Positions 33,439 to 63,812 of a stretch of DNA of 64,000 nucleotides are shown here, piece after piece. The notes below the pieces were generated by a model. That model ran no database searches and was not told the DNA's origin. It saw only the letters and a program-made list of their open reading frames with translations. The stretch's first letter is position 1, and every line of letters starts with the position of its first letter. The translations under genes were made by a program, and so were the position numbers. The DNA is from a virus. The stretch is from the UHGV virus genome UHGV-0277504. One strand, 5' to 3'.

Positions 33439-33769
33439 AAATAATTTTGATTTTATGATTTTTATCCCTTACAAAAATATCTGAATAATGTATTGTTCTA
33501 GGTACTTTAACTGTACTATTTTCATATCTAAGTAATGAATAGCCTCCTACCCATCTATCTGAGACATAATTAATATACATTACATTAGAATCAGTGTGAG
33601 GGAAAGTACCCTCTTCAACAATTACTGATTCATTATTATCTTTTACTTTTTGAAATTTTTTAGCAATACTAATATACTCTCTAGGTGTTGTATCTTTTGA
33701 ATTAGATTCACTTAAAGATTGTTTTACTCTATCTATATTTTGGTCTATTAAATTATAACTATTTGTCAT
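33401..33769 (-). CDS. hypothetical protein
   Basis: ORF. Confidence 0.45.
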   Translation of the reverse strand: MTNSYNLIDQNIDRVKQSLSESNSKDTTPREYISIAKKFQKVKDNNESVIVEEGTFPHTDSNVMYINYVSDRWVGGYSLLRYENSTVKVPRTIHYSDIFVRDKNHKIKIIFEGANPYEEEQR

Positions 33770-34782
33770 TCTTCATCCGTACCTTTGTTTTCAATTTCAG
33801 TACTTTTAATCTCATAAAAATCTTTAAGAGCTTGATATTCTTCAATAGTAGTAATATCTACTATTTTATTTTCTAAAGGTCGATACTTAGTAGGAAAGTT
33901 TTCAAAGTATACTCTACTAAATAATTCTAAATACAAATCATGATTATTAACAAGTGTAGGAACCCAATCTTTATCATAGTGTTTAATTTCTTCACCATTT
34001 AAAGTTACATAGTTACGCCATGTTCCTTTAGAAATTAAACCTCGTTCTACTGCTTCCTTATAAACTGTGTGATAAGGGTCAATACCATCTAATAGCATCG
34101 TATCATCTTTAGAGCCTACTTCATAACTTGATAATAAATCTGCTTCCGCTTTTTGTCCTGGTGTAACTAATTTAGATTTTTTAGTTTCAATACGCATTAC
34201 ATGACCTCTATAAGTAGGCTTACCTGTTGTTACATCTGTTTGTTTAAGACCTGATTCAGCACCCTTGGTTACTTTAATACGTAAACTAGCACCATGTTCA
34301 AAAGCTCTTCCACCTGTTGATTTTATAGGGTCACCATACATACCTGCGTTCATATCATCGCGAGCTTGGTTGATGATAACTAACCCTGTATTAGTATCAT
34401 TGAGTTTAGGAGTAATAGCATTGATTACTTTTTGTGTAGCTGAGGCTTTTAAACCCATTTGTTTTTCATCAATTCCTCCTTCAATTTCTTTAGCTGTTCT
34501 TGTAGCTCCTAGAGAATCCCAAATAAATAAAATAGGTACACCAGGTGCTTTTTCGTTAAAAGTATCAATCCAATATTCTAATTCTTTTCCTACAGTTTCT
34601 ACTGATAATTCAACAGTATTTTTAAGTCTACCTTCTCCTGCTTGAATAGTAAATAATTTAGATACATCTACCCCTAGTTGCTTCATTCGTTGGTTATCTG
34701 CTGTTCCTTCAATATCAATCCAAATAGTAATAACACCTAGTTGTGTAGTTATTCTAGATAAGTGTACTGCAAACGTGGATTT
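33766..34782 (-). CDS. RecA/UvsX-like recombinase, exon 2
   Basis: Frame reopens at KSTFAVHLS (completes Walker A GLTGSG|KST) and continues through a RecA-like core. Confidence 0.8.
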   Translation of the reverse strand, partial: KSTFAVHLSRITTQLGVITIWIDIEGTADNQRMKQLGVDVSKLFTIQAGEGRLKNTVELSVETVGKELEYWIDTFNEKAPGVPILFIWDSLGATRTAKEIEGGIDEKQMGLKASATQKVINAITPKLNDTNTGLVIINQARDDMNAGMYGDPIKSTGGRAFEHGASLRIKVTKGAESGLKQTDVTTGKPTYRGHVMRIETKKSKLVTPGQKAEADLLSSYEVGSKDDTMLLDGIDPYHTVYKEAVERGLISKGTWRNYVTLNGEEIKHYDKDWVPTLVNNHDLYLELFSRVYFENFPTKYRPLENKIVDITTIEEYQALKDFYEIKSTEIENKGTDEE

Positions 34783-36158
34783 CAGTTACTACCCCTAGTT
34801 TCCTAGTACTTTAACACTAATTTAATAGTGGGCTTAGACTATATCTTGAATTGCCTGGTCTGCAAGTTTTTGCTTTCGGTCTATATGAATATTATTATCT
34901 TGATATAGTAATTTCATTAATTCTTTAGCTTTTTTACCTGTATAACTTATTCTATAAGAGGTACTAGTTTTAGATACTTTAGGACATTTTAAACCTAATA
35001 AATCATTAATCCAAGTACCTACATCCTTTAAAAATTCAGGATGATTATTAATTAAAGTTATAAACCATCTATTATTATAATACCCGATTGAACCATCACC
35101 ATCAAATAACCCTCTTAAATAATGCTTTCTTAAATCATAAGGTATATCTTGTGTTAACCATTCTGTTTTTTTAGACTTCATAGGTACTATACCATATTTA
35201 GCTAAGTCATTACATAGTTTTTCATCGGTAACACTAAAAGTATAAGTTTGTTTTTCGTTTTTTATATAATCTCTTTTTCTATGTGATTCATATATTTTAC
35301 TGTCTGAATTCAATTCTTTTTGAACTCTTTTTACTATTTCTTTATCAATCAATTCTAGTGTTAAGTAACATTGCCCTTCTCGTCTATATCTAACACACCC
35401 ATCAGCCATTAATAAACCTAGTATATAAGCTTTCTCTTCAGTATCAATTACTTCAAAGAAATTTCTATTTATATTTCTATTAACGCTTCTAGTTTGATAG
35501 TAAGAAGTATCTACTCCAAAGTCTTTTAGTATTCTACCTATTTCTCTTGCGTGTGTTGTATATACCTCTTTTATCTCTGCTATAGTCATAGACTCTTTAG
35601 TATACATTCTTAGTATATCTTGTTTTTGCTTATTAGTCCATCTTCGTTTTTTATTTGTGTCAATATTAAACTCATCTAAAATTTTCTTGATAGTGAAATA
35701 ATGTGCATTATACTTATCTTGTAATTCTTTAAACGTTTTACCTTCTTGAAATGATTTTACTATATCTTGTTTCTCTTCATTAGTCCAAACTCGTTTTACC
35801 ATATTATACTACTCTCCATTTTTCTAATAGATTTCGTAGGCAATTCCCATGCACTTCAAAGATTAATATCTTTTACTCTACTCAGTTACTCTCTAATACC
35901 TCTCGGTACTAGATATCTTTTCGATAGTCGTTGAACCTTCTTCTTATCTTTCAACTTAGAAGCTTGGATGCTGATTACCTACACTATATAATATAACAAA
36001 AAGTTTTCGTTATACCATATAACTCATATACTTATTATTTTTAAACATTCACGCCTACTGTTTCCAGTTACGTTGTAGTTAATAAGTCTTTAAGGCTTCC
36101 CAGCAATTCACATGGGTTTGTAATAACTCTTTACAAGTCACTGTGGCTATTTAAGGCA
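34783..36158 (-). other. group-I-type intron interrupting the recA-like gene (1376 nt, contains a homing endonuclease ORF)
   Basis: Split Walker A; exon 1 ends in U, intron ends in G; GC-richer structured 5' segment 35803-36158. Confidence 0.65.
34834..35802 (-). CDS. LAGLIDADG homing endonuclease (intron-encoded)
   Basis: Two motifs ILGLLMADGC and LRGLFDGDGSIG. Confidence 0.8.
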   Translation of the reverse strand: MVKRVWTNEEKQDIVKSFQEGKTFKELQDKYNAHYFTIKKILDEFNIDTNKKRRWTNKQKQDILRMYTKESMTIAEIKEVYTTHAREIGRILKDFGVDTSYYQTRSVNRNINRNFFEVIDTEEKAYILGLLMADGCVRYRREGQCYLTLELIDKEIVKRVQKELNSDSKIYESHRKRDYIKNEKQTYTFSVTDEKLCNDLAKYGIVPMKSKKTEWLTQDIPYDLRKHYLRGLFDGDGSIGYYNNRWFITLINNHPEFLKDVGTWINDLLGLKCPKVSKTSTSYRISYTGKKAKELMKLLYQDNNIHIDRKQKLADQAIQDIV

Positions 36159-36371
36159 ACCACTGCCCGTTAAACCATACACTTCTGTAAGTCTTCCTAA
36201 AGGAATACCTCCCCCTAGAATTCTATCATATTGAGGAACCATAGTAGGAATTATATTTGTAATGTCTGCTTTATTACTATCTGATAATAGAGTTAAACCC
36301 ATTTCTTTACCTAAATCAATGGTATTGTAATCTTTCATATCTATTTCTTTACCTTTTTTTGCTCTTGCCAT
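36159..36371 (-). CDS. RecA/UvsX-like recombinase, exon 1
   Basis: ATG at 36369-36371 with AAAGGTGA RBS; ends ILGGGIPLGRLTEVYGLTGSG. Confidence 0.7.
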
Positions 36372-36428
36372 TATCTTATCACCTTTCAATATAAAAATCA
36401 AATAAAAGAGTGCTTAAGCACTCTAATA

Positions 36429-37667
36429 TTAAATGTCTAGATTTAAACCTTTTAAAACATCATCAACATTTTTTGGCTGTTCCATTTTAGGAGGTTCTTG
36501 ATATTGTTGTTGATTTTGTTGTACGTTTTGTTGTTGAGGTGGTTGTTGCTGACTTCCAGTGTCGAAAGGTACTTGAGAATCATTAATAGTATTCTCATCA
36601 AAATTCTCCCAAGGATTATTTCCTTGTTGTGGTTGCTGTGGTGCTTGTTGTACCTGATTAAACTGTTGCTGTTGAGTTGGTTGTTGAGTATTCTGTTGCG
36701 ATTGAGTATTAATAGTATTCCAATCATTCTGTGGTACTTGTTGTGTGTTTTGTTGTGGTTGATTACTTAAATTACCTGGTAACTGTTGCTCTACATGCTG
36801 TTGTGATGGTTGTGACTGCTGTGTTTGTTGTACTGGTTGTTGAGGTTGGCTAGGTGCATCCCCTAATGTATTTGTATCTCTATTAAAAGTAAAATTGTCT
36901 GTTTCTAAAGGTGTTCCATTTACTTTATTAATTAAGAAGTTAACAAGATTAGGGTTCACCTCTTCTGTAGGTTGAGCTAACTTATCTAAGTCTGAAGATA
37001 ACTCTCTCCAGTTAGAAGGTAAGTTACCGAATTGGTATTGTGGATTAGAGTATACTTGAACATACCAATTTGTTTTATCATTCTCTTTTGCTTTCTTAAA
37101 CATTACAGGATAAGCAACGTCTTCAGAAATAAAACTAAATTTAGCTGAAGGAGAAGGATTAAACATTTCATCTCCTAATTGACTAGCTAAAGCATTATAT
37201 GCTGTAATAGGAATTTCTAAAGGTGAAATCTTAGGATTACCTGAGTTATCTACTACAGGTTGTAAAGTACCACCATTATTAATATACTCAATAACTTCAA
37301 TATAATATCTATTTGACGGTCTATTAGGGAATCGACTAAAAGGAACCTTATTAGCTATCCAAGATTCAATAAATGGGTCAATAACTGACTCTCCTGATGT
37401 AGCTGGTAGTGTTAAACCTACGAATTTTTGCTCATTGTTTTTATTGTTGAAGTTAATACCTGTGTTTCTAAATTTCTTATAAAATTCTAAAGAACCTTCT
37501 TTTTTAGGTGGTAAAATACGTACTAAAATTGAATCTTTAGTTGAACCATCTTTTTGCTTACCTAATCGAATAACTGGATTTTTAGGTGTATAGTATTCCA
37601 CCTCATTATTGTTATTATTTTGTGTTTCTTTTGCTTGTTGGTTAATAAATTCTGTAAATGCTGACAT
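36429..37667 (-). CDS. hypothetical protein with Q/P-rich low-complexity C-terminal region
   Basis: C-terminal ~140 residues are about 40% Gln (QQPQQ, QNTQQ repeats). Confidence 0.5.
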   Translation of the reverse strand: MSAFTEFINQQAKETQNNNNNEVEYYTPKNPVIRLGKQKDGSTKDSILVRILPPKKEGSLEFYKKFRNTGINFNNKNNEQKFVGLTLPATSGESVIDPFIESWIANKVPFSRFPNRPSNRYYIEVIEYINNGGTLQPVVDNSGNPKISPLEIPITAYNALASQLGDEMFNPSPSAKFSFISEDVAYPVMFKKAKENDKTNWYVQVYSNPQYQFGNLPSNWRELSSDLDKLAQPTEEVNPNLVNFLINKVNGTPLETDNFTFNRDTNTLGDAPSQPQQPVQQTQQSQPSQQHVEQQLPGNLSNQPQQNTQQVPQNDWNTINTQSQQNTQQPTQQQQFNQVQQAPQQPQQGNNPWENFDENTINDSQVPFDTGSQQQPPQQQNVQQNQQQYQEPPKMEQPKNVDDVLKGLNLDI

Positions 37668-38293: not shown

Positions 38294-39283
38294 TTAAATT
38301 TTAGTAAATGCTTCTTTATTTCCTTTAATATAATTTTCTTTACTTTCTTTTTCTTCTTCAGTAATCTTACCTGATTCAAAATAATCTTGTATTTTTTGGA
38401 GTGCTAACATGTATTTAACATAACCAATAGGAGAGTTAAATTCATTCATATGCTTTTCATCATATTCTACTAAATCTCCATAGCTTGTTCCTATTTCCAT
38501 ATCTGCTACAATAGGATACCTAATATTCTCTCCTTCATACTCAATGTATAAGAAATCAAAAGGTAAGTTTTGCATACAATGTAATACAACTTTAGCCATA
38601 ACTTTAACTTCATCTGGGTGTGTATCAACTACAATACTATCATGTACTGTGGCAATAAGTTTAGACTTCATATTTCTAGTTTGAATAAAATCATCAATAT
38701 AAGTAATTGCCATACTTGTAAACCATGAACCTAAACCTTGTATTCTAGCATTAAATGATTGTCTTAAAGCTTGATTTCTTTTTTGTTTATCATTACTTGT
38801 AGCATTACCTAAAAATCGTCTAAACCCATGTAATGTTTCTACATAACCATGTTTTTGTGCAAACTCATGCGTGTCTTCAATCGCTTGTCCTACAGCTGGC
38901 TTATTTTTATAGTAATTATCAAATAATTCTTCTGCCTCTTCTACAGGCATATTATTTTTACTAGCAAAAGAAAATGGAACGTCACCATACAATAATGAGA
39001 AACTTACTGTTTTTGCTTTTGTACGTTCATCAGTAGTTATCTCTTCCTCTGGTTTATTATACACTAAGCTTGCTGTATTCTTGTGTAGGTCTCCCCCGTG
39101 TAAGAAAATATTAGTCATATCTTTATCTTTTGTCATCAAACCAGTAACTCTGAGCTCTAAAGCTGAATAATCGGCTTGTAAAATTACACCATTGTTAAAT
39201 CTTGAAACAAAAGAACGTTTAATAGGGTGATGATAATCAAATTTATTGACATTAGATGTGTGTGCTACAATATTTTGTAAATT
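38294..39283 (-). CDS. polA: DNA polymerase (family A), exon 2
   Basis: Frame opens at NLQNI; motif A ADYSALELR, motif B RTKAKTVSFSLLYG, motif C VHDS. Confidence 0.8.
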   Translation of the reverse strand, partial: NLQNIVAHTSNVNKFDYHHPIKRSFVSRFNNGVILQADYSALELRVTGLMTKDKDMTNIFLHGGDLHKNTASLVYNKPEEEITTDERTKAKTVSFSLLYGDVPFSFASKNNMPVEEAEELFDNYYKNKPAVGQAIEDTHEFAQKHGYVETLHGFRRFLGNATSNDKQKRNQALRQSFNARIQGLGSWFTSMAITYIDDFIQTRNMKSKLIATVHDSIVVDTHPDEVKVMAKVVLHCMQNLPFDFLYIEYEGENIRYPIVADMEIGTSYGDLVEYDEKHMNEFNSPIGYVKYMLALQKIQDYFESGKITEEEKESKENYIKGNKEAFTKI

Positions 39284-40380
39284 TTACTTGTGTACAATAT
39301 AATTTATTTATTATATTGTATCTATTGTCATTTAAACAATAGCTATATATCTCTATATAGGACAGACTATATCATATATCATTTCTGTGGTAGGTTTATT
39401 GTTTATTTACTGTTTCTAAATTTATATCCTTTATACTCTACAAAGTCATCTGTTTTTCTTAATTTATCTCTCAATGTCTTATGATTATTCATGTTGAGTA
39501 GTTTCATCACCTTATTCATACTATACTTAGTATACAATAGATTACCGTCTAAGTCAAATACATCAATTTTCATATTTTTACTTCTTTTAGACTCTTTATT
39601 TACATACTCCCACTTATAACCTTTATGTGATTTATGTCTTCCAGAAATTACTTGACTTATTTTTGATGGGCTAAAATACCCACCAGTTTCTCTTTGTGCT
39701 TGAGTGGGTGAATCCCACACCTTAACAATATTACCTTCCATATCTTTTTGATATACTGCTTTATTAGATACCTTTTTAAGTTGTTCCCTAGCACTATACG
39801 TATTTTGTCTACCTTGTTTAGCAGAGTGTAAGGTATTGCCCCTATAATCTACCCATTCTAGGTTGTTTACGTGGTTATTCAATCTATTATTATCGATGTG
39901 GTTAACAACATTTAGATTAGGATTATTGTTAGGTATAAAAAGCTTTGCTACTAATCTATGCACTAATATGTTACCCTCAGTAACTGTAACTTGTTTGTAC
40001 CCTGAATTAATAATCCATGGTTTTAATTCATGCTTAGTAATTTTATTTATTACTCTACCTGTATTACTTACTTTATATTTATCATCATAATCTTTCCAAA
40101 CTTCTTTCATATACTCTTCCTTACTATTCCCTACCACAGAAATAATATCCTTGCTTTCGTGGGTGTGTATTGGTTGTGCTACCTCAACACCTAGTCGTTG
40201 AGCCTTCCCCATACTTCCATACACTTTCAGGGGCTTGGTTGCGGATTCTCTTTATTCTTAACCTTTTTACTGTACCAAACACATTACTGTTTGCCCTTAT
40301 ATATGTTTCCATTATAAGTTAGTAGTTAAGACCTAACAAGTTTCTCCCCGCAGTTAACAAAGTTTTACAACCCCAATTTA
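39284..40380 (-). other. intron in the DNA polymerase gene (about 1.1 kb, contains an HNH endonuclease ORF)
   Basis: Exon 1 ends TGRLASSNP and exon 2 begins NLQNI, reconstituting the Pol I motif; boundaries inferred, within a few nt. Confidence 0.6.
39403..40224 (-). CDS. HNH homing endonuclease (intron-encoded)
   Basis: YKVSNTGRV (NUMOD4-like), VHRLVAKLFIPNNNPNLNVVNHIDNNRLNNHVNNLEW (HNH_3-like). Confidence 0.75.
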   Translation of the reverse strand: MYGSMGKAQRLGVEVAQPIHTHESKDIISVVGNSKEEYMKEVWKDYDDKYKVSNTGRVINKITKHELKPWIINSGYKQVTVTEGNILVHRLVAKLFIPNNNPNLNVVNHIDNNRLNNHVNNLEWVDYRGNTLHSAKQGRQNTYSAREQLKKVSNKAVYQKDMEGNIVKVWDSPTQAQRETGGYFSPSKISQVISGRHKSHKGYKWEYVNKESKRSKNMKIDVFDLDGNLLYTKYSMNKVMKLLNMNNHKTLRDKLRKTDDFVEYKGYKFRNSK

Positions 40381-42609
40381 AGGGTTACTACTGGCTAATC
40401 TTCCTGTACTTGTAGTTGTTGATGAGAAACTACCATGTAGTGTTTGTGTGTTTTTATTAACCATTCTAGGAAGCTTATGAGTAAATGAGTTTCGTTTTGT
40501 TCGTATAGAGGCGTAGTATAATAAGTCTTCTATTAGTTCTTTGTTATCTTCTGTTACTTCTAAATCAGATAATATATATCCTAGAGCTTTAGTATCTGTT
40601 TTATAGTCTTCCCAACTAATATCTTGCTCTTTCTTTTTCTCAAAAGAGGTAGCTTTAACGTAGTTCTGGTCATAAGGTAATTCAAAACCTAATATTTTAT
40701 ACAATAGTTCACTTTTATGGTCTCCTGACCCTATATTAAATTTCCACCCATCATCTTTATACTTATTTCTGTACTTCTCTATTTCTGGGTCTCTTTCTTT
40801 TTTAGGTTTACTAAACTCTTCTAAACCTAGTTCATATAAGTTATATTTTTCTTCTTCAAATTCTTTTACCGCCCAATGTTCTCTTATTTTATTTTCAATT
40901 TTAGTTAATTCTAATTCATAGGCTTTGTCATTCTTTTCCATGTAATCTAAATCAGCATATAGACCATTACTCTCTATTCTTGCTAGGGTTCTATCTAACC
41001 TTGGATAATCTTGTTGCCATAACTTTATTGCTTTAGGTCGTTGTTGGTCTTTTAATTTTTCTAGTATATTAGAATAAATTCTACGACATACATCAACGTC
41101 ACCACTAGCATAAGGGTGCATTAGTTCTAAAGGAATCCAATCATAATTAAACTTACCACCATCAACTTCATTATATACATCTGTATGTTTTTTAAACCTA
41201 TTAATTAATTCTAAAGCTGTTTTAAGTGTATATTCTTTACCTTCATCACTTAAAGACATATACTCATCCGAAAGCTTAGCTACCTCTTCAAACTCTGAAT
41301 CACCCATTAACATTGTTTTTGTTAATCGTTCTGGGTGTAAACCTAATTGAATATATTGCTTATCAGTACTATTCATTTCTGTTTTTTGCTCATATTTATC
41401 AAGCTCTACTTCTTTATCCACACTAATGTTTTCAGATAACCAATTTTTATATTCTGTTGCTTTAATATTATGTTCTTTTTTTGCAATACTCTTGTTATCT
41501 TTAATAATAGTAGACATTTTTTCTGACAAGAATTTAAGTAATTTTCTACTAAACCATTTTTTAAATTCTTCTAACGGTGTGTCATACCCACCCATATCTG
41601 TAACCTCATATGCTAAGTCAGACAGGCGTTTAGAATCTGTGGTTTCTTGTGTTACAGCTAAATACCAGCCTACAAGTGTGTCTTGATTATTTTCAAATGT
41701 GTTAAATCCTAGTGTACTCATTAGGAATTTTATATCATATTTAATATTATGACCTACTTTTATATCCTCTTTATCAGCTAACCACTCTCTTAAGTAACTT
41801 AGTATCTCATCAATATCTTTTTGTCCGTTTTTCCAATTAAAATCAGATTTATAAATAGGTATTGTGACACCTTGTCCGTTTTTCCAACTTAAAGATACTA
41901 CTAAAACTTTACTTCCTGCTCTATCTGGTTTTAGTGAATTAGTCTCTGTATCCCAAGCTGTTATATCTATACCATCATTATTATCTTTTTTTACTTCTTT
42001 AGTAAAAATCTCTCTTACTCTTTCAATATCTGTTACAAGTTCATATGACACTTTTTTAGGTTTAAAGGCTTCTTCTCCATTTTTTACAAATTTACCTAAT
42101 AAATTAAGGTCTGTAACTACATGACGTTCAGCATTTTTATTAACATTAGTGTATTCAATACTATAAGTAGGTAATACCCAAACATCTTTACTTGTATTTT
42201 CAGTACTTAATGTTATTTTGTGAGGTACACCTCTTACTGAACCTAATTTTGTAACGTTTAGTAAAAATTTAATACCTAGTTTACCTAAAGGAACAATAAT
42301 ATCATAATTATTATCAATAATTCGTTTAGTTAATTCTGAGTAATAAGGTTTAACTTCTGTTTGCTTTACATCTTGGTATTTAACAATCTTACCGTAATTA
42401 TTTGTTACAGGTGTTGGTATAGCCTTATACACAAAATCAATATCATAATCTTTTCTAGAATTATCTCTTACTAAACCTGAACATCTCTCTAATAACATTT
42501 TTAAAGTTTTACCATTTTGAGTATTAAAAAGATTTAATCTTGTTTTATTATCATCTGTAACTTTAAAATGTTCTTCTCTTATGTGGTCGTATAAAATTAA
42601 AGCTTTCAT
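40381..42609 (-). CDS. polA: DNA polymerase (family A), exon 1
   Basis: Likely true start ATG 42607-42609 with strong RBS AAGGAGAAG; ends at the O-helix-preceding TGRLASSNP. Confidence 0.8.
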
Positions 42610-42640
42610 ATTTATCTTCTCCTTACACTTGTTTAAATAT

Positions 42641-42669
42641 ATGATACCATAGAATATCTTTAATGTCAA
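42641..42669 (-). promoter_or_regulatory. putative promoter TTGACA-N17-TATCAT for polA
   Basis: Plus tgtcaa at 42664-42669; weak -10. Confidence 0.4.
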
Positions 42670-42703
42670 TAAAAAAAGAGACAAATTTTTTAATCTGTCT
42701 CTC
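42669..42703 (-). terminator. terminator hairpin (agagaca/tgtctct) with T-run on the minus strand
   Basis: 7-bp stem, A-run 42670-42677 on plus. Confidence 0.5.
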
Positions 42704-60809: not shown

Positions 60810-63800
60810 TTACATTTTTCTAATTTCAAATTCTTCTTCCTTATAAATTTTCTCACGCTCTTTTGAATGGTGGAATAAAAATCTATTAGTCATATCTGCA
60901 AAATCATAAATTTGTGTTGTATTATCATCTTTCTTTTTACGTAAAGCACGACCTACACGTTGTAATACTTGTCTTAATGATTTACCACCTGCTCCTAGTA
61001 TAAGTGAGTTAATACCTGAAATATCTACACCCTCATCTATTAAGCTTGTAGCAATCATTACTTTTAATTTACCGCTACGCATATCATTTAGTTTTTGTTT
61101 ACGTATCTCAGAATCAACTTCACCATGTAAAAAATAATGTTCTACATTTAAACCATCTAGTAATTCCGATATATTATTTCCATGGTCTATAAAGTTTACT
61201 ATAATAAGTATCCCTTTGTCCTCATTATACCACTTCTCTGTTAATTTTGCAATAAGTTTATTCCTAAAATTATTATTTATTATACCTTTCTCATAAGCAA
61301 CTCGATACTCATCTATATTATCAATATCATTAGGGTTGGCTATAGGTATAATATTTATTGTAGGTTTAGCTGAATGACCTTCTTCTATAAGTTGTTTATT
61401 CGTTACTCTAGATATAACATCTCCGAATAAACCTTGCATACGCATCCACAAAAGCTCATCTTTTTTATCAATGGAGCCTGTTAAAGCTATTCTATATAAC
61501 GCATTTTCACAAGTCATTAAATTGTTATACCAAGTATCTGATTTTGAGTGATGTGCTTCATCTACAATCATAACCGTTATAGTATCTAAAAACTCACGCA
61601 TACGATGATACTTATCATATTTTTTCTTATTCTTATTTCTTACTATATTTTGAAAGTTAGCGTTATGATTTTTTAATCTCATAAGCACTTCATTGTCATT
61701 CTTACAAGATTTATAAATACCGATAAGTTCATCTTTAACCGTTTGTTCTACTTTGGTTTTTGGTATAAAATTATCTAATAACATACCTAGTAGTTTCTTC
61801 TGGTTTGTACCTCCTTCAAACTTAGGTAAAAACTCAGTAGCAATCTTCTTACTTATATTCTGTTTAGGTGTTAGTTTAACGCCTTGTGTAGGGTCTTTAA
61901 GGTTAGCGTTAAGTGTAGGTACCATAACAACTGTTACTTGCTGTATATTAAATTGACCTGCTCCTACTTTACCTATAGGTATATTTAATCTTTGCTTTAA
62001 TCTATCTGCTGATTGATGAAAAATTTCTGTAGAACCTGTAAAGAAAGCTATTCTTTCTCCTCTTTCTAATTGAGGTAATAGTTGGTCTATAATACCACTA
62101 GCAATCTCGGTATTATGATTAACAACTGTATTAGAAATAAAACTATGTGTTTTTGGCATACATACATCGAATGTAGGTATAATCTCCTCTTCTAATACTT
62201 GTTCTACTTTCTGGTAATAGATATTCTTATCTGTTATACTTTCAAAAAGTTCTTTAATTTCCTTATCTCCGTCAGGGTATAATGCTACTACTTCTCTAAG
62301 TTTATCAATAGTAATAGTGTCTCTTGAAAGATACTTACTAAATTCTTTTTTATCTATATTTAAAGAATCTCTATATTTTTTTAGTAAATAACGTGACCCT
62401 TCTATAGTGTTTCCATAAGAACTTTTAATTTTTGTACCAATAGATAGGAAGTTCTCTTTTTGAGTTTTTCTTTGTTGTGTTTCGAATCTTAATAAAGGTA
62501 ATAATTTAATTAATTCTTTTCTATTAACTATAAGTCTATAATAGTTATTGTGTTTGTATTTTTTAACTACTTTTTCTTTACTAGTTGATACAATCCCTAT
62601 ATTAGAAAGAATAAGTTGTAAGTCTTTTATTAAATCTTTAGAAGCACTCGTAACTTCTAAGTTCTTTTCTGATATGCTGGACTCACATTCTAAGTAACCA
62701 CTTACAAATGCTAATTGAATATTTTCAGGGGCTTCCATAATACACTTAGGTATTCTTTTATCTTTTGCTACTCCATATTCAATTTTATATTTATCGTGAA
62801 ATTCCCTAGTTTTTATTGTATCATGTAAGTGTATAGTTATACCTTTAGATTCTTTATGTGTATCATAATAAACTTCCTTATTACTGAAAGTATTCCAGAA
62901 TTTAGAAACTTTATCTAGTATCTCTTTTTTATCGTTAGAAAATGACAAACGACTGTAAGAACCTAAATAACTGTCAGCTACCATACAACCTAATGCATAG
63001 GCTTCCTCTTCATTTTCTACGGTATTGTTGTTACCAAATTGACGGTCTCCTACTCTAGATACTAAAATATCTCCGACTTCAATATCTTCACTTTTTTTCC
63101 ATTTAAGATTAAAACCCTCTCTAACTAATAAGGGGTGATTATAAGTATTAACTAACTCAATACCTTTATTAGTTTTTATTCTCTTTGTAGGTTTTTCTCC
63201 ATTCTTAGTAAAATGACTAGTATACTCAACTTCACCATAACGATTTATTAATGGGTATTTTAATTCTATGACTTTTTCTTTATTATCTACTTTAACTCCC
63301 TGAGTTTCAAAAATCTCTTGAAGAGACTTATACCCTTCTGTAGTTAAAATCATAGAATCCATAGAAATACATTTACCTCCGTTTGTACTTATATGAAGTA
63401 TACCGTTAAAGTAAGTTAAACTATTGAATACAGCATCGTATTGGTAATCTCTTAAAGTTATTTGACCTACATTATCATCTAGTAAATTAATTTCCTTATC
63501 TATGTCTTCTTCAGCTAAGAAACTCTCATCACGTTCATCAGTTATTCCATATTGAAAATTATATCTAGACTGTAGCTCTCCTAATAACTCTTGTACTTTA
63601 AATAGTAGTCCTGTAGGGAATCTATCTCTATCGTACTCATAGAAATCTATATAACCATCCCACTGACCTCTTTTATACGCTGGACTATATTGAAACCCTT
63701 CCTGTCTTGCACCTAATGTTGTGTGCATCCTTTTTAAAATAATATCTTTTAAATAACTATCTCCCTCCTCAAATTCTATATAAGTATATAAGTTTTTAAC

Positions 63801-63812
63801 ATGTAATTTCAT
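60810..63812 (-). CDS. DEAD/DEAH-box (SF2) helicase interrupted by an intein
   Basis: Motif II IVDEAHH and downstream helicase motifs; Walker A ISTNGGK|T is split by a 420-aa insertion beginning with Cys and ending HN. Confidence 0.75.
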   Translation of the reverse strand: MKLHVKNLYTYIEFEEGDSYLKDIILKRMHTTLGARQEGFQYSPAYKRGQWDGYIDFYEYDRDRFPTGLLFKVQELLGELQSRYNFQYGITDERDESFLAEEDIDKEINLLDDNVGQITLRDYQYDAVFNSLTYFNGILHISTNGGKCISMDSMILTTEGYKSLQEIFETQGVKVDNKEKVIELKYPLINRYGEVEYTSHFTKNGEKPTKRIKTNKGIELVNTYNHPLLVREGFNLKWKKSEDIEVGDILVSRVGDRQFGNNNTVENEEEAYALGCMVADSYLGSYSRLSFSNDKKEILDKVSKFWNTFSNKEVYYDTHKESKGITIHLHDTIKTREFHDKYKIEYGVAKDKRIPKCIMEAPENIQLAFVSGYLECESSISEKNLEVTSASKDLIKDLQLILSNIGIVSTSKEKVVKKYKHNNYYRLIVNRKELIKLLPLLRFETQQRKTQKENFLSIGTKIKSSYGNTIEGSRYLLKKYRDSLNIDKKEFSKYLSRDTITIDKLREVVALYPDGDKEIKELFESITDKNIYYQKVEQVLEEEIIPTFDVCMPKTHSFISNTVVNHNTEIASGIIDQLLPQLERGERIAFFTGSTEIFHQSADRLKQRLNIPIGKVGAGQFNIQQVTVVMVPTLNANLKDPTQGVKLTPKQNISKKIATEFLPKFEGGTNQKKLLGMLLDNFIPKTKVEQTVKDELIGIYKSCKNDNEVLMRLKNHNANFQNIVRNKNKKKYDKYHRMREFLDTITVMIVDEAHHSKSDTWYNNLMTCENALYRIALTGSIDKKDELLWMRMQGLFGDVISRVTNKQLIEEGHSAKPTINIIPIANPNDIDNIDEYRVAYEKGIINNNFRNKLIAKLTEKWYNEDKGILIIVNFIDHGNNISELLDGLNVEHYFLHGEVDSEIRKQKLNDMRSGKLKVMIATSLIDEGVDISGINSLILGAGGKSLRQVLQRVGRALRKKKDDNTTQIYDFADMTNRFLFHHSKEREKIYKEEEFEIRKM
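62112..63371 (-). other. intein (420 aa) with LAGLIDADG-type endonuclease domain in the helicase P-loop
   Basis: Block A CISMDSMILT, block B TYNHPLL, C-terminal VVNHN followed by Thr; internal AYALGCMVADS and LAFVSGYLECES DOD-like motifs. Confidence 0.7.

Follow-up and report, generated by a model that had tools for sequence, protein, structure and literature searches.

In the terms of Michel and Westhof's classification and of the work of Landthaler and Shub (cited in PMC5618024), the group IA introns of phages Twort (orf142, nrdE) and T4 (td, nrdB, sunY) have an architecture like that of the element analyzed here, with P7.1 and P7.2 hairpins and a protein-coding phage gene as host. In these introns, a stop codon follows soon after the 5' splice site, and an optional endonuclease open reading frame (ORF) is looped out from a peripheral helix. 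Our element spans positions 34783–36158 on the minus strand of a 64,000-nucleotide stretch of viral DNA (UHGV virus genome UHGV-0277504; "the window" denotes this whole stretch), where it interrupts rec, a predicted RecA/UvsX-like recombinase gene. It is very probably a mobile group I intron (IA-like) inserted in phase 0 in the Walker A motif of rec, with the gene of a LAGLIDADG homing endonuclease in its P8 loop. Its splicing we infer from sequence, whereas self-splicing has been shown for the Twort and T4 introns. Host genes and endonuclease family also differ: T4 td carries the GIY-YIG enzyme I-TevI in P6, as opposed to the LAGLIDADG ORF in P8 here. A Twort locus matches the intron core sequence at 84% over 77 nt.

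Group I introns in recA are described for Bacillus anthracis and the B. thuringiensis phage 0305phi8-36 (PMC3239194, PMC3984707). The phage intron carries a homing endonuclease, I-Bth0305I, that cuts uninterrupted recA adjacent to the insertion site; it is presented there as representative of a new endonuclease family, not LAGLIDADG.

The window comes from a Twort-like Staphylococcus phage. At 33700–36450, identity is 99.9% with Staphylococcus phage Quidividi, 99.7% with phiIPLA-C1C (both of the genus Sepunavirus; Herelleviridae, Twortvirinae) and 86–90% with many Kayvirus phages. The intron in rec is already known, being annotated in GenBank and described in papers. The MSA6 record (JX080304) holds a joined rec coding sequence (CDS) and "I-MsaII, putative intron-encoded endonuclease"; that of 812 (EF136586) a joined "RecA812" with "I-812II"; and that of Quidividi (MH321490) a joined CDS labeled "RecA; contains intron encoding a DOD homing endonuclease", although the Quidividi announcement, unlike the record, does not list RecA. 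A Sepunavirus RecA intron is also annotated in phiIPLA-C1C (KP027447). In the literature, the rec intron is described with its splicing predicted only (PMC5618024, PMC7698491), and rec is listed among the intron-bearing genes of Herelleviridae (PMC10383478).

The Kayvirus rec intron (I-MsaII/I-812II; MSA6, fRuSau02, 515A1, 812) agrees with the window's in gene, insertion point and 1376-nt length. Its ribozyme is 98.9–100% identical and its ORF 97.4%, with 98.1% amino acid identity over the 322-aa protein, and it also holds the TGTTATATTA motif (pL154 in PMC7698491). Unlike the Kayvirus copies, the window intron sits in Sepunavirus exons, beside a short Kayvirus-like tract of exon 1 (36162–36174). 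The Quidividi intron is 100% identical to the window's; the Kayvirus-like flank is longer in the window, and the polA region differs too. What we add to these descriptions is modest: a secondary-structure model tested on variants, the precise extent of the probable co-conversion tract, and a blind spot of the Rfam threshold for ORF-bearing introns.

The insert splits rec at a fixed point in Walker A

Upstream of the exon 1 ATG lie a terminator-like hairpin (36424–36407) and the ribosome-binding site AAGGTGA. The exon 1 translation ends in ...EVYGLTGSG, with GGT at 36161–36159 the last sense codon common to homologues; beyond it, the frame reads TGC CTT AAA and ends at TAG. The exon 2 frame reopens at 34782 with AAA TCC ACG (KSTFAVHLS), stop codons lying directly upstream in the same frame. 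The first-pass annotation, made from the letters alone, had an exon 1 end at ...YGLTGSG and a resumption at KSTFAVHLS; both were read at the places it gave, and re-reading the sequence reproduced its coordinates for the insert to the base. Joining 36159 to 34782 yields a 409-aa protein in which GLTGSGKST (residues 66–74) is an intact Walker A motif (GxxxxGKS/T), and the exons are without frame damage. This joined product scores 103.3 bits against Pfam RecA (cut-off 27, 2e-29) over residues 26–289, spanning the junction, and matches phrog_97 "UvsX-like recombinase" at 1.9e-88. The host gene is a predicted RecA/UvsX-like recombinase, as first proposed, split between G71 and K72 inside Walker A.

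A 200-nt probe of the joined exons matched 401 phage records, in 241 of which the sequence is uninterrupted, as a single piece; the junction is therefore fixed to the base, and chance is far from explaining the split. The intron-less Kayvirus Staph1N reads ggcagtggt/aaatct (the slash marks the insertion point), and MSA6 carries identical flanks around a 1376-nt insert. The Staph1N-type intron-less site is GGCAGTGGT/AAATCT and the SEP1-type site is GGTTCAGGT/AAATCC. The last bases are T in exon 1 and G in the intron, the first bases T in the intron and A in exon 2; because exon and intron termini share no bases, the insertion point cannot slide. Insertion is in phase 0, between codons G71 and K72. 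A junction shifted one base upstream (GG/...U/GAAA) would also restore G-K, but it contradicts the intron-less DNA alleles and breaks the U(-1) and terminal-G rules. The U ending exon 1 and the G ending the intron, already pointed out in the first-pass annotation, are kept in all seven intron variants compared below. The locus should thus be annotated as a single intron-containing gene, where many records list two "recombinase" fragments and an endonuclease.

A group I core surrounds the endonuclease ORF

The first-pass annotation had suggested checking the flanks of the ORF against the group I covariance model, for which we used the Rfam family RF00028 (gathering threshold 50 bits). Its expectation of a core was borne out in sequence but not in score: core matches lie on both sides of the ORF, each below threshold, and they surfaced only in a search of a 2-kb stretch with lax filters. 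One half match, of 21.2 bits (E 0.014), lies at 36105–35925 and covers RF00028 positions 60–148, with P4, P5, P6, J6/7 and the 5' strand of P7. The other, of 20.0 bits (E 0.031), lies at 34906–34814 and takes in the 3' side of P8, J8/7, the 3' strand of P7, and P9. Both are on the correct strand, one on each side of the ORF. The aligned blocks UUCAACGACUA and AAGAUAUAGUCU agree closely with the RF00028 consensus, and UUCAACGACUA and AAGAUAUAGUC are placed on the consensus blocks UUCAaAGACUA and gAAGAUAUAGUCu with high posterior probability, so that the conserved J6/7-P7 and J8/7-P7 sequences forming the guanosine-binding site are present. The threshold is missed because a 969-nt ORF in L8, the P5 extension, and P7.1/P7.2 break up the model. 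Homology of the core extends to other phage group I introns. Among them, the PT1-4 phage lysin intron, which has its ORF downstream, scores 85.9 bits on RF00028; its P4, P5a/b, P4'-P6, J6/7-P7 and J8/7-P7 blocks are near-verbatim those of the window.

Seven introns (window, MSA6, 812p, Remus, V1SA19 and two IMG/VR contigs) were aligned after removal of the ORF. In the structure listed in Table 1, placed by hand and with room for every core helix from P3 to P8, the P3/P7 pseudoknot and the P4–P6 and P3–P9 domains included, 98.4% of 709 cells across the seven variants fall in standard pairs, compared with 29.7–47.7% when the 3' partners are slid by 1–3 columns. Thirteen pairs change on both sides, against 0–2 when slid and 4.1 ± 1.4 in shuffles, and none of 500 shuffles reaches 13. 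The helices with compensatory changes are P2, P3 (long-range), P5a, P5b, P6 (three variants with C-G in place of U-A), P7.1 and P7.2; P9 and P9.1 are also counted, with the proviso that the differing hairpins of V1SA19 there are beyond the registration of the alignment. Variation in P4 (UGCUGG with UCAGCA) is one-sided, as it is in P8, which has a single mismatch, and there is none in P5 or P7. The window sequence itself pairs in every named helix, and the U·G wobble of P1 at the 5' splice site is present in 7/7 variants.

The two hairpins P7.1 and P7.2 were placed at 35893–35912 and 35858–35873. Hairpins at this position, between P7 and the 3' strand of P3, define subgroup IA in the classification of Michel and Westhof. 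We conclude that the insert is a predicted group I intron of IA type, the subgroup call resting on P7.1/P7.2; the group-I-type architecture put forward in the first-pass annotation is backed by covariation and by the two partial RF00028 core matches.

We also considered, and rejected, a hairpin between exon GGCA (-9 to -6) and intron UGCC (+1 to +4) that would mask the 5' splice site. It is broken in 812p, V1SA19 and L013, and the seemingly compensatory GGUA/UACC of Remus is equally explained as a G·U to A-U change in an extended P1.

Table 1 Coordinates of the rec exons, the insert and its predicted elements in the window.
Feature	Positions	Strand	Details
rec (recA/UvsX-like) exon 1	36159–36371	-	71 codons; ATG at 36371; last codon GGT (G71); U is the final exon base
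Probable co-conversion tract	36162–36174	-	holds all 7 whole-gene differences from SEP1
Insert, predicted group I intron, subgroup IA-like	34783–36158	-	1376 nt; core matches, comparative fold, intron-less alleles
P1	36143–36163	-	exon GUGGU and intron UG with internal guide UAGCCAC; 7 pairs, 100% paired in 7 variants
UAG stop of exon 1 frame	36147–36149	-	3 codons inside the intron; overlaps the internal guide sequence
P2 hairpin	36122–36142	-	2 pairs changed on both sides
P3 5' strand, CCCAUGU	36110–36116	-	U-A to C-G compensatory change in Remus
P4-P5-P6 domain	35936–36105	-	~110-nt P5a/b/c extension; RF00028 positions 60–148; homology to PT1-4 lysin intron
TGTTATATTA	35989–35998	-	same as Kayvirus late-promoter -10 consensus; 3' strand of P5c hairpin (35984–36022)
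J6/7 and P7 5' strand, UUCAAC GACUAU	35924–35935	-	invariant; P7 is GACUAU with AUAGUC
P7.1 and P7.2 hairpins	35858–35912	-	between P7 and P3'; 5 pairs changed on both sides
P3 3' strand, GCAUGGG	35846–35852	-	partner of CCCAUGU, ~260 nt away
P8 5' strand, AAUUGCCU	35838–35845	-	pairs with AGGCAAUU; whole endonuclease ORF in P8 loop
GGAGAG ribosome-binding site of endonuclease ORF	35812–35817	-	9 nt before ATG; annotated RBS in Quidividi
Predicted LAGLIDADG homing endonuclease ORF, 322 aa	34834–35802	-	in P8 loop; last codons overlap P8 3', J8/7 and P7 3'
LAGLIDADG motif 1, YILGLLMADGCV	35392–35427	-	residues 126–137; invariant in 6 intact copies
LAGLIDADG motif 2, YLRGLFDGDGSI	35086–35121	-	residues 228–239; invariant in 6 intact copies
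P8 3' strand, AGGCAAUU	34849–34856	-	comparative fold
J8/7 and P7 3' strand, CAAGAU AUAGUC	34837–34848	-	fits RF00028 consensus AAGAUAUAGUC
P9 hairpin and P9.1 hairpin (GAAA loop)	34795–34830	-	V1SA19 has different hairpins at the same places
Terminal G (omega G)	34783	-	intron ends ...AACUG; final CUG in 7/7 variants
rec exon 2	33766–34782	-	first codon AAA (K72 of Walker A GLTGSGKST); 338 codons and stop

Splicing model and competing explanations

In the model that we favor, transcription would run through the intron, and ribosomes translating exon 1 would halt at the UAG (36149–36147), three codons into it. Bacterial and phage group I introns often have such a stop soon after the splice site, to which a role in keeping ribosomes out of the ribozyme as it folds is ascribed (PMC3984707). 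The RNA would then fold, so that P7 can bind guanosine and P1 places its U·G pair at the 5' splice site. Two transesterifications would cut the intron out behind its terminal G and ligate GGU to AAA, giving a spliced mRNA predicted to encode the complete 409-aa recombinase with its Walker A lysine codon restored. The endonuclease would be translated from its own GGAGAG site, possibly from a separate late transcript begun inside the intron. In a mixed infection, it may cut intron-less rec at the Walker A coding sequence, and repair off the intron-bearing copy would transfer the intron together with a few flanking exon bases. The locus would be a clear example of a homing endonuclease aimed at the most conserved codons of an essential-function motif.

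Several observations weigh against this model. Rfam returned no group I match in the whole 64-kb window at the gathering threshold, and again none at E ≤ 1; even summed, the two half matches reach ~41 bits against the threshold of 50. With P4 varying on one side and P5 and P7 invariant, these three helices yield no compensatory evidence, and the variants compared are closely related, with column identity averaging 91%. The unconstrained minimum free energy (MFE) of the ORF-deleted intron is -113.3 kcal/mol, compared with -74.3 for the named nested helices; this fold of the AT-rich RNA contains other pairings and does not reproduce the long-range core, and we therefore relied on the comparative analysis. 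Inspection by eye of P10 (exon 2 AAAUCC with the P1 loop) found no convincing pairing; exon 2 varies right past the junction, in the region considered for P10 (AAGAGU in 812p). The literature covered, which excludes the Romulus/Remus paper, contains no RNA demonstration of splicing for this intron, and where peptides from both halves of Rec were detected by liquid chromatography–tandem mass spectrometry (LC-MS/MS), the paper states that continuity of the polypeptide is not proven (PMC5618024).

One alternative is an intron that has decayed and lost splicing, making rec a pseudogene in this phage. Introns and endonucleases of this family do decay, as exemplified by the internally deleted endonuclease ORF in the same intron of V1SA19. 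In the window, however, the ribozyme helices are intact, within the 98.4% pairing across variants, the endonuclease is full length with both catalytic Asp motifs, the exons have no frame damage, and the whole intron is 100% identical to that of Quidividi, a propagating phage. We consider decay very unlikely here.

Less probable again is that a free-standing endonuclease gene splits rec and nothing is spliced, the two halves then being translated separately and either assembling or giving an inactive recombinase. Such a split would agree with the lack of direct splicing evidence in the literature, with Rfam calling no group I intron at threshold, and with LC-MS/MS peptides from both halves but no junction peptide (PMC5618024). 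It does not account for the non-coding flanks of the ORF, where compensatory changes and canonical J6/7-P7 and J8/7-P7 sequences mark a conserved group I core, or for the retention of U at -1 and the terminal G in 7/7 variants. Moreover, the 5' end of exon 2 has neither a start codon nor a ribosome-binding site, and a protein begun at its first in-frame ATG, at 34686, would lack Walker A.

That the insert is an intein or a group II intron has a negligible probability: LAGLIDADG domains do occur in inteins, including one in a helicase of this window, but the insert is out of frame with the exons (stops at 36149–36147 and immediately upstream of 34782), Pfam detects no intein-splicing domain in the endonuclease ORF, the insert contains no reverse transcriptase ORF, and the core matches are to RF00028.

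The P8 loop encodes a predicted LAGLIDADG endonuclease

The endonuclease ORF of the favored group I intron matches Pfam LAGLIDADG_3 in two stretches (57.1 bits, cut-off 22.5), in agreement with the two clean LAGLIDADG motifs noted in the first-pass annotation, and phrog_4645 "endonuclease". The motif cores, LLMADG (residues 129–134) and LFDGDG (residues 231–236), contain the conserved acidic residues; the ORF is full length and retains both catalytic Asp motifs. Substitutions among the variants concentrate at third codon positions (28/16/66 over the three positions against Remus, for example). The ORF product is a predicted double-motif, monomeric-type LAGLIDADG homing endonuclease that would cleave the intron-less allele site-specifically. 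A sequence search of the PDB with the endonuclease gave nothing useful.

The C-terminus of the protein, ...ADQAIQDIV followed by UAA, is encoded by the P8 3' strand, J8/7 and the P7 3' strand. Because these codons double as strands of the ribozyme core, the C-terminal peptide is nearly invariant while identity elsewhere falls to 74.8%. The same overlap would make translation of the ORF and folding of the core mutually exclusive in any one RNA molecule.

At the N-terminus (35503–35796, minus strand; residues 3–100) are two tandem ~47-aa repeats, 41% identical (E 3e-13). Their Pfam matches are sub-threshold only, the best being HTH_Tnp_1 at 21.4 bits (cut-off 24.1, E 3e-4), and residues 18–100 partially match phrog_8446, labeled HNH endonuclease. 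The repeats presumably form an extra DNA-binding module.

The candidate promoter element TGTTATATTA occurs twice in the window against 1.63 expected, which is not above chance, and gains weight only through homology to pL154. The homologous site in 515A1 is named late promoter pL154, though without a measured step-up in RNA-seq (PMC7698491).

Probable intron exchange between phage genera

Sequence identity to Kayvirus MSA6 is high within the intron (98.9% in the 5' ribozyme part, 97.4% in the ORF and 100% at the 3' end) and lower around it (80.3% in exon 1, 73–87% in exon 2 and 63–71% in flanking genes). Exon 2 shows no difference from that of SEP1, a sister phage lacking the intron, over all 1017 positions. 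The seven SEP1 differences lie 4–16 nt upstream of the insertion, and at six of them the window has the Kayvirus base. The co-conversion-like tract includes a Ser codon (AGT rather than TCA) that supplies the GUGGU strand of P1. This discordance between intron and exon identity, together with the tract, points to the footprint expected of cross-genus homing with exon co-conversion, which speaks indirectly for cleavage by the endonuclease, and the locus may serve as an example of intron transfer between phage genera used in therapy.

Exon 1 differs from that of Quidividi at only two bases, 36173–36174 (GGT TTA here, GGG CTA in Quidividi). With these two extra Kayvirus-like bases in the window, the two near-identical phages therefore carry tracts of different length, Quidividi the shorter. 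It is possible, if on balance doubtful, that the Sepunavirus copy was recently gained by cross-genus homing from a Kayvirus-like donor, leaving a one-sided tract of at most ~16 nt. If so, the greater length of the tract than in Quidividi would mean that staphylococcal phages used in therapy have exchanged the intron repeatedly, or are still doing so. The synonymous 5' half-site of the SEP1 type (ACA GGT TCA GGT) could then be a natural allele that is cleavage-resistant, or poorly compatible with splicing because P1 would also weaken.

Overall, the intron is found at the rec site in Kayvirus, Silviavirus and Sepunavirus, in ~97 records, against 241 without it. In the Silviavirus phage vB_SauM-V1SA19 (L007, 2004–2758), the same Walker A intron measures only 755 nt because its endonuclease ORF is internally deleted, and V1SA19 shows what appears to be a decay stage of this intron's endonuclease. 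V1SA19 also has a second group I intron further downstream in rec (L007, 3071–3457; 42.4 bits on RF00028).

Other split genes and neighbors in the window

A family A DNA polymerase gene (38294–42684, minus strand) is also split, into an N-terminal ORF (40378–42684) and a C-terminal ORF (38294–39139), an arrangement that differs from the annotated polA intron of Quidividi. Between the two lies a 1.24-kb insert, probably another group I intron with an ORF, in which two sub-threshold RF00028 half matches (19.8 and 17.8 bits) flank an HNH/NUMOD4 ORF (39403–40224). The practical lesson is that the curated Rfam group I threshold misses ORF-bearing phage introns, both candidates in the window included.

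The gene upstream of rec (36429–37667, minus strand) encodes a 412-aa protein whose C-terminal half is very Q-rich (QQ and PQQ runs); the Quidividi annotators remarked on "so many Q residues; some homology to ss DNA binding protein". Finally, a UvsW-like helicase ORF of 1000 aa (60810–63812, minus strand) harbors an intein with a LAGLIDADG domain (Pfam Intein_splicing, LAGLIDADG_3, Helicase_C), which is likewise annotated in Quidividi_119.

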